DNA of 64,000 nucleotides from a virus (Duplodnaviria; Caudoviricetes), in the IMG/VR virus record IMGVR_UViG_3300014205_007777, positions 5,476 through 69,475 of that record; one strand, 5' to 3'. Positions 27,722-47,359 of this stretch are shown here, piece after piece; position 1 is the first letter of the stretch; each line of letters begins with the position of its first letter. The translations under genes were made by a program, and so were the position numbers. Below the pieces are notes generated by a model, which ran no database searches, had not been told where the DNA came from, and saw only the letters and a list, made by a program, of their open reading frames with translations.

Positions 27722-27879
27722 CCTTACTCTTAGCTACTTTTAAAATTATACTCAGTACTTCAGCTACTGTAGTATTTGACTTTTGAGCCATACTCAGCAG
27801 AACCAGATATTCTTTTACATTTACTCTGATTATTCTTGTGTTCAATTCTGAAGGATATTTTCTCTTAGTCATGTATACA

Positions 27880-29028
27880 TTATACTACACTTGTTACAAG
27901 GCTGTCAATAGTATTAGGAAAAATCTCCTCCTTATTTTCACTATAGATTACCGCTGGTTTTGGCTTCATACCAAAACGGCACAAAGTCATCCCCCCCGAC
28001 ATTCCGGGACCAATTGACAACATCGCCACATAATCTCCCGGTTGAATATTCTCACTCATTAATAGTTTCCCTTGAATCCCAACACTTGTCGAACTTGTAT
28101 TACCATAAAGCCGTAGTGTCTCCCGCGAAAGAGCAAGTTTCTCCTCTGGCAAACTTAAAGCCTTACCTATATTATCTATCACCGAACCTCCTGCAGCATG
28201 TATAACCCACCAGGTTATATCCCATATATCCAGCCCATTGCGTTTTAACACAGCCCATACCGCGGGTTTGACCACCTGTGCCGCCAGTTCCGGCACACGG
28301 CGTGATAGTATCACTCTCAACCTTCCGTTACGCCACTCAAACCCCAGGTCATCAAGATACTCCGTATTGGTATTATTCTCGGTATCTATTATTTCCGGAT
28401 GCCGCCAATCATCATCGTCTCCGATAAGAGCTGCAATAGCAGCATCGGCAAAAAGTGCATTACTGCGTAAAACTTCAAATCCGTTCTCGGGATCTGGACG
28501 GCAAGTAACATCATCGGGGTTTTCTCTCTCCGGCCAATACGCCAAACTACTTAATTCACAGTTCACCGCTAAAGCCTGCCCGCCATTGGCCTTTACATAA
28601 TCATAAGCTGTTTTCAGACCAGGGAAAGCAGCTTCACAACCCATTCCGGAGTTATTAATTATATAGGTGTCCGGCGAAAATCCTAACCGCGCAGACAAAA
28701 AATGGGGAATAGTCGGACCGGGAGCGAATCCGGTACAGCTCCCGTATATCATACGTTTAATTGCTTTTATATCCCTTCCGTCCAGGCAATTTTTTATAGC
28801 TTCTACAGACAGATCCACAGCCTTTCCTCTATAGAGGTCTTGCTGTTCCTGGAAAGACATTTTCACCGCGTCCGATAATTTTATTACGAAATGACGCTTA
28901 TCTATCCCGCTGTCACGGAAAATACGCCACCAAACCTTAGGATAACCCAATATATTAAATGCCTCTTCTTGGGTATACCAATACTCCGGTACCGCGTAAC
29001 CAATAGAAATAAGTTTAACCCTGCTCAA
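27880..29028 (-). CDS. Type III polyketide synthase (chalcone synthase superfamily)
   Basis: Complete Cys-His-Asn triad: GMGCEAA, WVIHAAG, YGNTSS; also NCELSS, LFADAA, IGPG motifs. Confidence 0.92.
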   Translation of the reverse strand: MSRVKLISIGYAVPEYWYTQEEAFNILGYPKVWWRIFRDSGIDKRHFVIKLSDAVKMSFQEQQDLYRGKAVDLSVEAIKNCLDGRDIKAIKRMIYGSCTGFAPGPTIPHFLSARLGFSPDTYIINNSGMGCEAAFPGLKTAYDYVKANGGQALAVNCELSSLAYWPERENPDDVTCRPDPENGFEVLRSNALFADAAIAALIGDDDDWRHPEIIDTENNTNTEYLDDLGFEWRNGRLRVILSRRVPELAAQVVKPAVWAVLKRNGLDIWDITWWVIHAAGGSVIDNIGKALSLPEEKLALSRETLRLYGNTSSTSVGIQGKLLMSENIQPGDYVAMLSIGPGMSGGMTLCRFGMKPKPAVIYSENKEEIFPNTIDSLVTSVV

Positions 29029-34253: not shown

Positions 34254-34328
34254 TGCGAGTTGGAGCAGTGGCAGCTCATCAGGCTCATAATCTGAAGGTC
34301 GTTGGTTCGAATCCAACACTCGCTACCA
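34254..34328 (+). tRNA. tRNA-Met(CAT), initiator-like
   Basis: Cloverleaf: acceptor T-GCGAGT/ACTCGC-T, D-stem GAGC/GCTC, anticodon loop CTCATAA, T-arm GTTGG-TTCGAAT-CCAAC, encoded CCA. Confidence 0.92.
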
Positions 34329-43832: not shown

Positions 43833-44024
43833 ATGAAAAAGACCAAACTCACGGGTGTCAGTGAAACCCGTAAATGGCACGGTAAGACCTATTATTTATT
43901 CGATTTCTGTGCTACTGAAGAAGAAACACGACAGGAACTACGTAACTTGCGTAAAACGGGCTACCTGGCTCACCACAGACCTTGCCAGGGCGGTTTCCAC
44001 ATCTTTGCTTGCCCTAAAGAATAA
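43833..44024 (+). CDS. Hypothetical protein
   Basis: SD AAGGAG; 63 aa. Confidence 0.55.
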   Translation: MKKTKLTGVSETRKWHGKTYYLFDFCATEEETRQELRNLRKTGYLAHHRPCQGGFHIFACPKE

Positions 44025-44167
44025 TACGTAGTAAAATCTATGACAAAGGAAAGAAATGAGTATAGTGGGATATAAGGTCAAGTGCCCGGTGGACGGTAAA
44101 GAGTGTGATAAGATAATAAAAGCCTGTTGTTCTTGTCCGAGGAATAATCCGAAGTAGGAGGTCTATC

Positions 44168-44419
44168 ATGGCTAAGAAAGTTTTGTATCCGCACGTAATA
44201 ACGATTAAAAGGGAAAAAGTCATTAATGAAATGCTTGTTAAAAAAAGTCAGGATGGAAATTTTGAAATAGCCGAGAACACTTTAGAAGGCGGTACCAAAA
44301 CGTACTTTGTTAACGGTTTTTCTAATGGTATGAGTTTTCAGATAGAATGTGTAAATCTTAATGCTGCAGAAAAATTATACAATCTGTTTGTTACCGGACA
44401 ATACAAATATAGAGGTTAA
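44168..44419 (+). CDS. YPH-tagged small protein (MAKKVLYPHV)
   Basis: N-terminal tag variant; SD GGAGG. Confidence 0.65.
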   Translation: MAKKVLYPHVITIKREKVINEMLVKKSQDGNFEIAENTLEGGTKTYFVNGFSNGMSFQIECVNLNAAEKLYNLFVTGQYKYRG

Positions 44420-44421
44420 CC

Positions 44422-44583
44422 ATGTCTAAAGAGCCGCTTTATCCGCATATACCAAAGAGTGAAATAATAAGGGACAAAAAACCCAAGCGTTCTCGTCCTG
44501 AAGAGTGCCCAATCTGTAGTGGGACCGGCAGACTAAGAGGTAGAATATGTCCTAACTGTGCCGGACATGGTACTATAGCATAA
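44422..44583 (+). CDS. YPH-tagged 53-aa DnaJ-type zinc-finger peptide
   Basis: Manual translation MSKEPLYPHIPKSEIIRDKKPKRSRPEECPICSGTGRLRGRICPNCAGHGTIA. Confidence 0.7.
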   Translation: MSKEPLYPHIPKSEIIRDKKPKRSRPEECPICSGTGRLRGRICPNCAGHGTIA

Positions 44584-44596
44584 GTAGGAGTATTCC

Positions 44597-44893
44597 ATGT
44601 CTAAAGAGCCGCTTTACCCGCATATACCAAAGAGCAAAATAGTCTATCCTGAATTCACAAAAGGATTATTGAGTTGGTATACCGAGTCAGGTGGAAGTTT
44701 ACAAGCTGACGCGATAGGAAATCTTAAAGGTAAAGAACAAGTTATTGAGGTTTACCAAGATGTTGAGACCGGTGAATGGAAGTGGATTGTAGTTGATCGG
44801 CAACGCGGATATCGTTTTGATGGTATCAGTTCATCGGAACAAGAAGCAATTAACAAAGCCTCTACTACTTGGTATCATGGTAAAATTTCATGA
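44597..44893 (+). CDS. YPH-tagged protein (MSKEPLYPHIPKS)
   Basis: Tag; first ~40 nt nearly identical to those of 44422. Confidence 0.7.
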   Translation: MSKEPLYPHIPKSKIVYPEFTKGLLSWYTESGGSLQADAIGNLKGKEQVIEVYQDVETGEWKWIVVDRQRGYRFDGISSSEQEAINKASTTWYHGKIS

Positions 44894-45054
44894 AACTTCC
44901 CAAGAAAGCCCGGGTAAAAGAACAAGAGGAGTTCATAGAGAAGCAACTAAAAGCTATGACTCCAGAGAAATCCAATATACCACGTAGTGTAAAAGTCCAG
45001 TTTCCACATATCATTAAAAAGAAAACCGTTCTATTCCCCCATGTCAAAAGTTAA
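44890..45054 (+). CDS. 54-aa basic peptide with two degenerate tag copies (QFPHI, LFPHV) at C-terminus
   Basis: Manual translation; ATGA overlap with 44597-44893. Confidence 0.5.
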   Translation: MKLPKKARVKEQEEFIEKQLKAMTPEKSNIPRSVKVQFPHIIKKKTVLFPHVKS

Positions 45055-45464
45055 GTAAAATATTCCCAAAAATATTCCAGTTTTAAATGTTTTTACGCCT
45101 GTACCGGTAATGTTATTGGTAATTATGCCAGGCGTTTTGACAGCTTGCTTTTTAGGCCTGTTTGCGTTTTTGTATTTATAACAACAAATTTCACGATATT
45201 TTGTCTTTTAAACAACAAATTTGGTGCAAAATTGACGTCAATTCTGTTTCATTTTTGTGGTAAAACCACGCTAATAATATTAGCATTTCAGTCGTCCGAT
45301 AAAATCGGACAACTCGTTTGTAAAAAACGACTTATAATATTAGTGCCTTTTGGACAAAATCTGAAGCTAGGTGGACTAAATATTACCTGTTTGCATAAAC
45401 AAGTCCGCTTACCCTTGTAATTTCGAAGTAATAATATTAGTGGTAAATAAATAAACAACTCCTA

Positions 45465-45493
45465 TTGACATAACGTCTATACAGGGGTATAAT
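45465..45493 (+). promoter_or_regulatory. Perfect-consensus sigma70 promoter
   Basis: TTGACA-17 bp-TATAAT. Confidence 0.85.
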
Positions 45494-45499
45494 TAATTC

Positions 45500-45935
45500 G
45501 TATAAGAGCCAGCCACCTAGAAATAGGCGGGGATTATTAGGTCTCAGAAAAAATGGAACTTAACCACTCGGTAATGCGAGGGTTGCGTAGTTTGGGCGTC
45601 GTGAAACTCGGCGTGAACCATTACGAAGTTGTGATGTCCAGATGAATGGCTGGCTCTCAAAGAGGGGAGAAAGAGGTGCAAAGAAACGGCTAGCCATTTG
45701 GTGTTAGGCCAAGTAATTGAGAGCCGTAGTAGAAAGCCGAAAGGTACTGAGAGCCAAAATGGGTAAACAGGTGAAAACCAGCCTCAATCTCCCCTAGATA
45801 AAAGTTGATGGAATAAAAGGTGGGCGCCGTATGACCTCTCGTTGAAGGCACGGATGAAATTATCAGGCAGTGGGTTGTACCCATAACGAGGCTGCCATCC
45901 CACCATAGGTAATCGTGGAGAAACATGAGTTGAAG
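45500..45935 (+). ncRNA. Candidate large structured ncRNA or leader, family not recognised
   Basis: Helices 45505-45515/45647-45657 (11 bp), 45663-45670/45788-45795, 45686-45691/45722-45727, 45819-45824/45899-45904, 45866-45870/45892-45896; GAAA tetraloops. Confidence 0.6.
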
Positions 45936-45945
45936 GAGCAAATTC

Positions 45946-46356
45946 ATGGATAACATAAAAAAGCTGAAAGTATATGGGATAGACCCTAAGCAGGATATTA
46001 AATTCTACTATCGCAGGATGATAAATGGAGCGGTTATAACGGCTTGTGCCATCCGTCTCCCCTGGCAAACAATGGGTGCCCAGGATGCCTACGCTAGAGG
46101 GTTGGCTGTTTGTACCCCGCAAGACCAGTTCAATAAAAAACTGGGTCGTACTATCGCCATGGGCCGGGCAGTGGCAGCTATAGAGAAGAAACGATCCTTC
46201 GGAGACATCAATACGAGTTTTCTTATTCCCGAAGAATTTGAGAAAGCCTCACTGTCTACCTACGGAGACGTATCGGTTTTGACCGAATCTGAACGATCCT
46301 TGTTTAAATTAGATAAATCAAAGGAGGAGTCAACCCATGGCGTACCGAAAGGTTAA
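45946..46356 (+). CDS. Hypothetical phage protein
   Basis: RGLAVCTPQDQFNKKLGRTIAMGRA motif; SD AAGGAG. Confidence 0.7.
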   Translation: MDNIKKLKVYGIDPKQDIKFYYRRMINGAVITACAIRLPWQTMGAQDAYARGLAVCTPQDQFNKKLGRTIAMGRAVAAIEKKRSFGDINTSFLIPEEFEKASLSTYGDVSVLTESERSLFKLDKSKEESTHGVPKG

Positions 46357-46546
46357 AGGACATATAAAGATTCCTAAAAACAGAAGAGATGAACGTAACC
46401 TGGAAATATATCAGCTATGGCTGGAGAAACGGGATGAGTTGACCCTCGAGGATGTCGGTAATAAATATGGATTGACCAGATCCCGTATCTGCCAGATTAT
46501 AAAAAGACAGGGTGAATTGGCTTTGGCGGGAGAGGCGGAGAAATGA
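46337..46546 (+). CDS. Sigma70 region-4-like HTH protein
   Basis: TLEDVGNKYGLTRSRICQI. Confidence 0.75.
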   Translation: MAYRKVKGHIKIPKNRRDERNLEIYQLWLEKRDELTLEDVGNKYGLTRSRICQIIKRQGELALAGEAEK

Positions 46547-47041
46547 CCATAGACAAAGCCATTGAAATACTAACATTGCGTTCAAAAAGTCCTTTTGTGA
46601 GGGCAAATAAGGATACTGTAGATGCTCTTAGTCTGGGTATTGAAGCCCTGAAAGCTGTTCAGTTTTGGAATCATAAGCAACTGCCTCAATTCCAAATTCA
46701 TCTTCCGGGGGCGGAGAAATGAAACTTTCTAAAAATCTGGCCTTCGTTATTATTCTTCTCTTGTTTTTACTTTTCGGGATCTCGGTGGTATTACTCCGGT
46801 GTAACCAGATAATGTAGAAGGCGGAAAGATGAAGTTTTGTATTCTTATCTTGTGTCTAAATAGTCTTGCTTTGGGGGTTCACCAGATTAAATATAGTCAT
46901 GATTTAATCAGTGGGATTATAACCATAATTTTTAGTATTGTGGTGTGTGTGGTTTTTTTAATTAATAAGAGATTATCCTGGTTTTCTGGAGTAAAAGATT
47001 AAGAATCAGTTAAAGACTTAATAAAGGAGTGTTGAGCAAAG

Positions 47042-47359
47042 ATGAAAATTTATCTGTACTGTAAACCTGCGATAGGATGGGGGGAAAACGATGTAGTAGG
47101 TTATGCAATAGCCGAAGATGGTATTGGTATAGCCTCTCATTTGAGTACAAACATAGGGTATTCAAAGCATGACATGGGTTTAACTTCTGATTTGAAACAT
47201 GATATTTACAAAGAGCATTATCCAGAGGGATATGAGTTAGAGTGGGTTGATAGCCCCGATACCCATGAAGGTCTTAAAAAGGCTCTTGCTTTAAATGAAG
47301 AATTATTTCAGAAGCAAATAGCTAATCCCGCATCAGTAACAATAACTATGACTGAATAA
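47042..47359 (+). CDS. Hypothetical phage protein
   Basis: Preceded by AAGGAGTGTTGAGC leader. Confidence 0.7.
   Translation: MKIYLYCKPAIGWGENDVVGYAIAEDGIGIASHLSTNIGYSKHDMGLTSDLKHDIYKEHYPEGYELEWVDSPDTHEGLKKALALNEELFQKQIANPASVTITMTE

Follow-up and report, generated by a model that had tools for sequence, protein, structure and literature searches.

Results

The locus and its upstream regulatory region

The window analysed here, that is, the whole stretch of 64,000 nucleotides, corresponds to positions 5476-69475 of a 69,475-bp IMG/VR record that carries direct terminal repeats. Between two of its plus-strand genes lies an 890-nt gap, bordered by the end of a 54-aa ORF at 45054 and the start of a 136-aa ORF at 45946, and it is in this gap that the structured RNA described below sits (Table 1). 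An earlier note on this DNA had placed a perfect TTGACA-17-TATAAT promoter directly ahead of the RNA, and this holds, with TTGACA at 45465-45470, TATAAT at 45488-45493 and a score of 12/12. Perfect promoters of this type (TTGACA-N16-18-TATAAT) number three in the 64 kb vs. 0.02 expected from shuffled sequences, and canonical sigma-70 promoters are evidently in use by the host. The leaders behind the other two perfect promoters measure only ~30-150 nt, and a leader of 437 nt is therefore unusual for this element. Based on the usual promoter spacing, transcription is predicted to start around 45500-45502.

The AT-rich region upstream of the promoter carries three GTAAAA-N-TAATAATATTAG boxes (at 45260, 45320 and 45417; 8 matches to the box vs. 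1.26 expected), a palindrome around TTGACGTCAA at 45212-45261, and two iteron-like direct repeats at 45168 and 45199. The nucleotide identity of this region among relatives (77-88%) is higher than the amino-acid identity of the neighbouring proteins (63-72%), and it is probably the main regulatory region of the family, with activator- or repressor-controlled promoters, or an origin. We also observed that the boxes carry a -10-like TAATAT without a good -35, that positions 45103-45464 fold unusually well on both strands, and that the perfect promoter at 62684 reads TATAATAATATTTAG, similar to the TAATAATATTAG boxes. Elsewhere in the window, a 384-aa ORF at 1049-2203 matches the PHROG transposase family phrog_506 (E 2.6e-110); it may be IS200/IS605 TnpB-like.

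Table 1. Coordinates of the features at the locus and of the corresponding gene in relatives (window positions unless a relative is named)
Feature	Position	Strand	Basis or remarks
AT-rich conserved regulatory region upstream of the promoter	45103-45464	+	77-88% identical in relatives
Perfect sigma-70-type promoter, TTGACA-17 nt-TATAAT	45465-45493	+	12/12 match; conserved in L002 and L011
All three perfect promoters of the window	27879-27908; 45465-45493; 62657-62684	-; +; -	Pattern count in the window
Lineage-specific non-coding cassette, putative transcribed leader, 437 nt	45494-45930	+	Similarity to all relatives lost exactly here
Domain 1	45505-45657	+	11-bp perfect closing helix AGAGCCAGCCA/UGGCUGGCUCU; multi-branch junction; four hairpins incl. 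CCUA-GAAA-UAGG
Domain 2	45663-45795	+	Purine-rich closing helix AGGGGAGA..GAGG / CCUC..UCUCCCCU; junction; four hairpins incl. GCC-GAAA-GGU
Domain 3	45819-45904	+	Closed three-hairpin domain, GGUGGG/CCCACC; not distinguishable from chance
Shine-Dalgarno AAGGAG (45934-45939) and 136-aa gene (ATG 45946), first gene of the putative operon	45934-46356	+	ORF list
69-aa sigma-70-region-4/Mor-like gene	46337-46546	+	Pfam Sigma70_r4 match
HTH_11-like winged-helix gene, 115-118 aa	L002:9440-9796; L011:4185-4532; L003:8984-9337		After the promoter in all three related lineages

Coding capacity of the 437-nt region

The limits of the 437-nt region were set by alignment and by BLAST break-points. Its base composition is A 32, G 29, U 21 and C 18%, and its GC content of 47% is similar to that of the element's coding DNA. 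In agreement with the earlier note, which saw no credible ORF on this strand, each plus-strand frame holds 8-13 stops, and all three kinds of stop are present in each, so that no single stop reassignment would open these frames. The minus strand does offer open frames of 88 and 112 aa, but these are a by-product of the purine-rich plus strand, are oriented against the surrounding genes and overlap with the 136-aa gene; further, a search of 5.8 billion proteins at E<=1 returned no relative of the 88-aa product, and the codon-usage score is positive in no frame. That a protein-coding gene was overlooked on one of the strands, or is hidden by another genetic code, is hardly plausible on these grounds (stops, codon usage and absent protein relatives), and protein-coding conservation, which had been named as one of the observations that would overturn an RNA interpretation, was found on neither strand.

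Predicted fold

The minimum free energy (MFE) fold of 45500-45945 (RNAfold) consists of three consecutive closed domains, as had been proposed from the letters alone, with both predicted GAAA hairpins in place (CCUA-GAAA-UAGG at 45516-45527 and GCC-GAAA-GGU at 45736-45745). Domain 1 contains the inverted repeat I5, and its closing helix begins at 45505, i.e., 4-6 nt past the expected transcript start. Domain 2 holds a duplicated UGAGAGCC motif as well as the repeats D5 and I4, and its centroid structure is the same as its MFE fold. In the MFE fold, A/U-rich single-stranded linkers lie at 45796-45818 and 45905-45933. The pseudoknot suggested previously (CCAUUU at 45694-45699 with AAAUGG at 45757-45762) fared less well: the two segments are indeed complementary, but about two such 6-mer pairs are expected per 134 nt, so that the pairing does not exceed chance, and it would compete with a 7-bp hairpin of the MFE fold.

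Is the structure beyond chance?

The whole 446-nt region has a z-score of -4.0 for folding energy, with 0/100 dinucleotide shuffles as stable, and its minus strand a z of -1.8. For comparison, 19 coding windows of 446 nt from the same genome, taken in the sense strand, gave z -0.15 +/- 1.04 (minimum -2.18), which places the region 3.7 control standard deviations beyond the coding DNA of its own genome. The individual domains, whose ends were picked from the fold and whose z-scores are biased as a result, reached -4.38 for Domain 1 (0/200 shuffles as stable; -5.3 and -5.8 in further runs) and -4.34 for Domain 2 (1/200), against a range of -1.9 to +1.25 for 17 coding 150-mers. Ensemble diversity was also low in both, 11.2 vs. 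34.7 for shuffles in Domain 1 and 9.8 vs. 27.2 in Domain 2. On the minus strand of the same stretches, z was only about -2.2 to -2.3 and the low ensemble diversity was absent as well. The 446-nt region holds three closed domains of 80-175 nt, where a shuffled sequence yields ~0.25 and a coding control 0.21 on average. Domain 3 behaves differently from the other two, with z -1.26 and -0.9 and an ensemble diversity no better than that of shuffles.

It is important to note how much of this signal survives the selection of domain boundaries. A null of shuffle domains picked in the same manner had a mean z of -2.2 and a minimum of -3.6, and the 19 coding controls contained four such closed domains, one of them at z -4.8. 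Domains 1 and 2 thus remain outliers, and a row of three closed domains remains rare, by a margin that the raw z-scores overstate. The control domain at z -4.8 lies in the window ~60800-61245 (minus strand), and could represent real mRNA structure or the bias of a boundary-selected z-score. A crude genome-wide regression of MFE on mononucleotide composition gave the region a z of only -1.2, a value that we discounted in favour of the shuffle-based controls, since the additive model over-predicts the stability of G-rich, C-poor sequence. Taken together, the folding model supports a strand-specific, thermodynamically exceptional predicted RNA structure directly behind the consensus promoter.

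Searches for known families and homologues

The RNA is outside every described RNA family. Consistent with the earlier note, which recognized no tRNA, tmRNA, SRP or intron hallmarks, ARAGORN finds only one tRNA-Met in the window (34254-34328), and the 4227 covariance models of Rfam 15, a set that includes ROOL, GOLLD, OLE, HEARO, raiA, riboswitches, RNase P, 6S, SRP, group I/II introns and small ribozymes, match only this tRNA at 34254 at the gathering level. A permissive Rfam scan of 45000-46100 (E<=10) returned four junk matches, none of them within 45500-45945. No homologue of the RNA was found by blastn against phages and plasmids, nor in viral and genome collections with exact or gapped patterns derived from it; exact-word scans of this kind are insensitive below ~90% identity, and the 17-mer pattern matches obtained were short chance matches. 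Covariance models of Domains 1 and 2 identified no further copy in the window, in any of the relatives described below or in the other fetched loci, and the same was true when the 81-kb contig of the relative L002 was walked (L002 and L015-L021, positions 570-81265). Likewise, 119 unrelated viral loci with the generic promoter pattern showed no blastn similarity to the RNA.

Several more specific identities were also considered. A retron, diversity-generating retroelement (DGR) or group II element is contradicted by the lack of a PF00078 reverse transcriptase in the whole 69-kb genome (control genomes were matched) and of a second copy of the RNA. A MITE-like or palindromic DNA element does not fit a sequence that is single-copy in the genome, folds into multi-branched domains instead of a single long hairpin and shows strand-specific stability, and was rejected, as were the preceding candidates. 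An antisense regulator of the element's own genes was rejected as well, the longest complementarity being 13 nt and 12-mers occurring at the expected rate, and comparison by eye with the start-associated sequence AAGGAGTGTTGAGC (below) revealed no meaningful match. Finally, the features of a riboswitch-type sensing leader are missing, with no Rfam aptamer, no terminator-like site in 44000-47000 and, in the MFE fold, no helix that sequesters the Shine-Dalgarno (SD) sequence.

Relatives and cassette exchange at the promoter

Relatives were retrieved from viral, metagenome and genome collections by way of the proteins encoded nearby and of a 19-mer conserved in the upstream region. They comprise L002 (an 81-kb ENA contig, with a homologue of the 136-aa protein at 63% identity), L003 (the same as L004 and L006, from IMG/VR and JGI), and L011 with L012 (from JGI and Logan). 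Searches with the conserved regulatory word in these collections returned only the three relative lineages plus chance matches, and the neighbour-protein searches only L002, L011/L012 and L013, a 574-nt fragment of the same virus that stops short of the RNA. The upstream region and promoter are 77-88% identical in L002, L011/L012 and, in part, L003, with the three TAATAATATTAG boxes and the promoter kept in L002 and L011, where identity over 45103-45493 amounts to 77-85%. Similarity to the relatives stops right after TATAAT and returns at ~45931, at the SD of the 136-aa gene.

What lies between these two points differs from lineage to lineage. In L011 the slot contains a ~125-nt leader and a 115-aa HTH_11-like winged-helix gene; in L002 a small membrane-peptide ORF, the winged-helix gene and a Zn-ribbon gene; and in L003 a 200-nt leader, a DnaJ-like gene and the winged-helix gene. 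A homologue of the winged-helix gene is found nowhere in the whole genome to which the window belongs (G000). The DnaJ-domain gene of the L003 slot (L003:9339-9845) is 87% identical at the amino-acid level to a gene at G000 1959-2456, outside the window, and its occurrence at quite different places shows mosaic cassette shuffling within the family. Since the slot contents of the relatives differ, the winged-helix gene is missing here and the DnaJ-like gene lies elsewhere, the position behind the promoter is a cassette hot-spot. The 437 nt have no DNA similarity to the slot contents of the relatives; a decayed copy of their winged-helix, Zn-ribbon or DnaJ genes was rejected, the best tblastn score (18.9 bits) being equalled in 25/300 shuffles. 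Because similarity breaks exactly at the promoter and at the ribosome-binding site, with other genes between them in the relatives, the RNA is a lineage-specific cassette that was swapped in; the 437 nt are one cassette, apparently unique to the window's lineage.

The leaders in L011 (4045-4187) and L003 (10065-9849, minus strand) are 125-200 nt long and stand behind the same promoter. Both contain a near-leaderless 17-codon mini-ORF (MVLVGTCRESRRSVTDG / MVMVACRKWRNRRKSRR) and a 12-bp clamp helix (CTGCCGGRAG/CTYCCGGCAG) around a variable insert, with one compensatory change between them, and are followed by a AAGGAGTGT-type ribosome-binding site. Such a leader could control the winged-helix gene in the manner of an attenuator. 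The L003 leader as a whole is not significantly structured (z -0.43). Given that L011 and L003 place a helix-clamped leader behind the same promoter, the slot carries leader RNA elsewhere in the family as well. The resemblance to our RNA extends to the shared promoter, the shared slot and closure by a long-range helix, whereas the sequences are unrelated, and the leader of the relatives is 125-200 nt long, contains a 17-codon mini-ORF and is followed by a winged-helix gene that is missing from the window's genome.

The downstream genes

The cassette is followed by the SD and start codon of the 136-aa gene and then by the 69-aa gene (Table 1). Homologues of the 136-aa protein include P0002 (63% identity) and a 129-aa protein of L011; its predicted structure was too poor for use (pLDDT 49.5), and a PDB sequence search returned no match. 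The SD of this gene is unpaired or weakly paired in the MFE fold; no SD-sequestering helix is present in that fold, and no terminator-like site was found in 44000-47000. As a separate observation, an extended start-associated sequence, AAGGAGTGTTGAGC, precedes small genes at window positions 47042, 47884, 48261, 48396 and 63135; it also stands before the first gene of L011 (L011:4160-4185) and is therefore a family trait.

Discussion

The reading that we favor, at a probability of roughly 0.45, is that the 437 nt serve in cis as the structured 5' leader, specific to this lineage, of an operon whose first gene encodes the 136-aa protein. The arrangement at the locus is the one that such a leader calls for: a promoter upstream, a helix close to the predicted 5' end, no terminator in between, and an SD and ATG at 45934 and 45946, and in the relatives the same conserved promoter drives protein genes. 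Under this reading, the RNA would be transcribed from the family's consensus promoter together with the 136-aa and sigma-70-region-4-like genes, and would adopt a fold in which two multi-branched domains are stable and well defined and the third is weaker. It would have entered the lineage by cassette exchange at the conserved promoter and ribosome-binding-site junctions, replacing a winged-helix regulator gene that, in two of the three related lineages, comes with a short clamped leader. An RNA that is tightly folded, rich in G and poor in C, and that has a helix close to its 5' end would resist 5'-end-dependent RNases and Rho, and such resistance is needed for an untranslated stretch of 437 nt to be tolerated. 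The helix ~5 nt from the 5' end and the G-rich, C-poor tight fold of our RNA should shield the transcript against both, and the leader would perhaps also be a platform that senses a factor or ligand and tunes the small downstream regulators. Several observations weigh against this reading: the closest relatives do without the RNA and no homologue was found in the collections searched; neither a terminator nor an SD-sequestering helix is predicted that would mark a switch, the MFE fold leaving the SD free; Domain 3 and the pseudoknot are at chance level; and the domain z-scores are inflated by boundary selection, with the composition regression at z -1.2. Among the interpretations offered by the earlier note, that of a regulatory leader fits best (no terminator intervenes, and the SD and start follow), whereas nothing supports a ribozyme and no homologue supports a new ncRNA family.

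Alternatively, the 437 nt could be functionless filler, the remnant of an illegitimate or mosaic recombination event that removed the leader and winged-helix gene, with a structure that is incidental or tolerated; we regard this as somewhat unlikely. None of the relatives carries the RNA, which for the closest of them holds over positions 570-81265, nearly the full length of its 81-kb contig, and the family shuffles cassettes freely (e.g., the DnaJ-like gene occupies the slot in L003 and lies elsewhere here). The GC content, the same 47% as in coding DNA, the chance-level Domain 3 and the coding control domain at z -4.8 would also be in line with an incidental fold. However, filler would not be expected to reach a whole-region z of -4.0, 3.7 control standard deviations beyond coding DNA, or to show very low ensemble diversity in two adjacent domains and on the transcribed strand only. 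Nor does the sequence look like a remnant, given that its residual similarity to the winged-helix gene is not significant (25/300 shuffles as good) and that it has no DNA similarity to the relatives' slot contents, while the clean boundaries at the promoter and SD suggest module exchange rather than decay.

It is unlikely in our assessment that the region yields a stand-alone stable ncRNA, comprising either Domains 1 and 2 (~290 nt) or the full 440 nt, that is released from the 5' end of the operon mRNA by processing. Such an RNA would work in trans, for example by scaffolding, by modifying RNA polymerase, by ribozyme activity or as a decoy that captures a host factor or a defence system. This reading would be compatible with the very strong promoter, with two compact, well-defined and independently closed domains bearing GNRA loops (a build typical of functional RNAs), with the A/U-rich linkers at 45796-45818 and 45905-45933 as possible processing sites, with a cassette that took the place of a regulator gene found in all three relatives, and with the lack of a match to any known family. 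Yet the RNA has no terminator or defined 3' end, its complementarity to the rest of the genome is not above chance (longest 13 nt), and no homologue was found; moreover, there is no partner gene and no reverse transcriptase, and the adjacent genes are common to relatives without the RNA.

Going further, Domains 1 and 2 might represent a class of large structured RNA not encountered before, carried as an exchangeable cassette in the master regulatory slot of a rare family of virus-like elements and functionally replacing the winged-helix regulator of the relatives. Proposed roles for such a class may include the sensing of a ligand or host factor, a put-like modification of RNA polymerase, ribozyme activity or action as a decoy. 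We consider this distinctly unlikely; with no homologue in the collections searched and with the closest relatives lacking the RNA, the 'new large viral ncRNA' of the earlier note is unsupported as a family.

Comparison with known systems also favors, by analogy, a role closest to that of a structured 5' leader or stabiliser. Stem-loops at the 5' end stabilise mRNAs such as that of E. coli ompA (in its 5' UTR), and stabilisers of the STAB-SD type are represented by Bacillus phage SP82 and cryIIIA. Like these, our RNA has a strong promoter on one side and the first SD on the other with no terminator intervening, a helix a few nucleotides from the predicted 5' end and, in Domain 2, a purine-rich SD-like tract (AGGGGAGAAAGAGG); it differs in being three to ten times longer and multi-domain, in that the SD-like tract is paired rather than free, and in having no sequence relation to them. 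Sensing leaders such as the T-box, M-box and cobalamin riboswitches likewise precede a gene as 5' leaders built from compact, closed domains rich in junctions, but here no known aptamer matches, no terminator or SD-sequestering platform is predicted, and small regulators rather than genes of metabolism or transport lie downstream. The putL and putR RNAs of phage HK022, nascent-RNA antiterminators of ~70 nt with two stem-loops just downstream of the early phage promoters (PMC9378689), offer another parallel, as cis-encoded structured RNAs right behind a strong consensus-type promoter and ahead of a regulator operon. The present RNA, in contrast, has three multi-branched domains over 437 nt and no sequence similarity to put, and a put-like action on RNA polymerase is a conjecture by analogy. 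Finally, the large ornate classes ROOL, GOLLD, OLE, HEARO and raiA were defined by covariation over many members, and GOLLD and ROOL often adjoin tRNAs (PMC5737381; 10.1101/2024.12.08.627333). Like them, our RNA measures several hundred nucleotides, is multi-domain with GNRA tetraloops and is found on a virus-like element; unlike them, it is a single sequence, has no Rfam match within its limits at E<=10, and precedes a protein operon rather than adjoining a tRNA as GOLLD and ROOL do. The resemblance to ROOL and GOLLD is thus one of size and style only.

In conclusion, the structure reported here is a prediction from a single sequence, and its main value is as a well-delimited candidate, for which coordinates and domain boundaries are given and covariance models were built. 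As its promoter is a perfect sigma-70 consensus, the RNA should be easy to test in a laboratory host. If functional, it would represent a compact (~300 nt) candidate for a new structured RNA, and would mean that RNA modules and protein modules replace one another at a single regulatory site within a poorly known family of virus-like elements.
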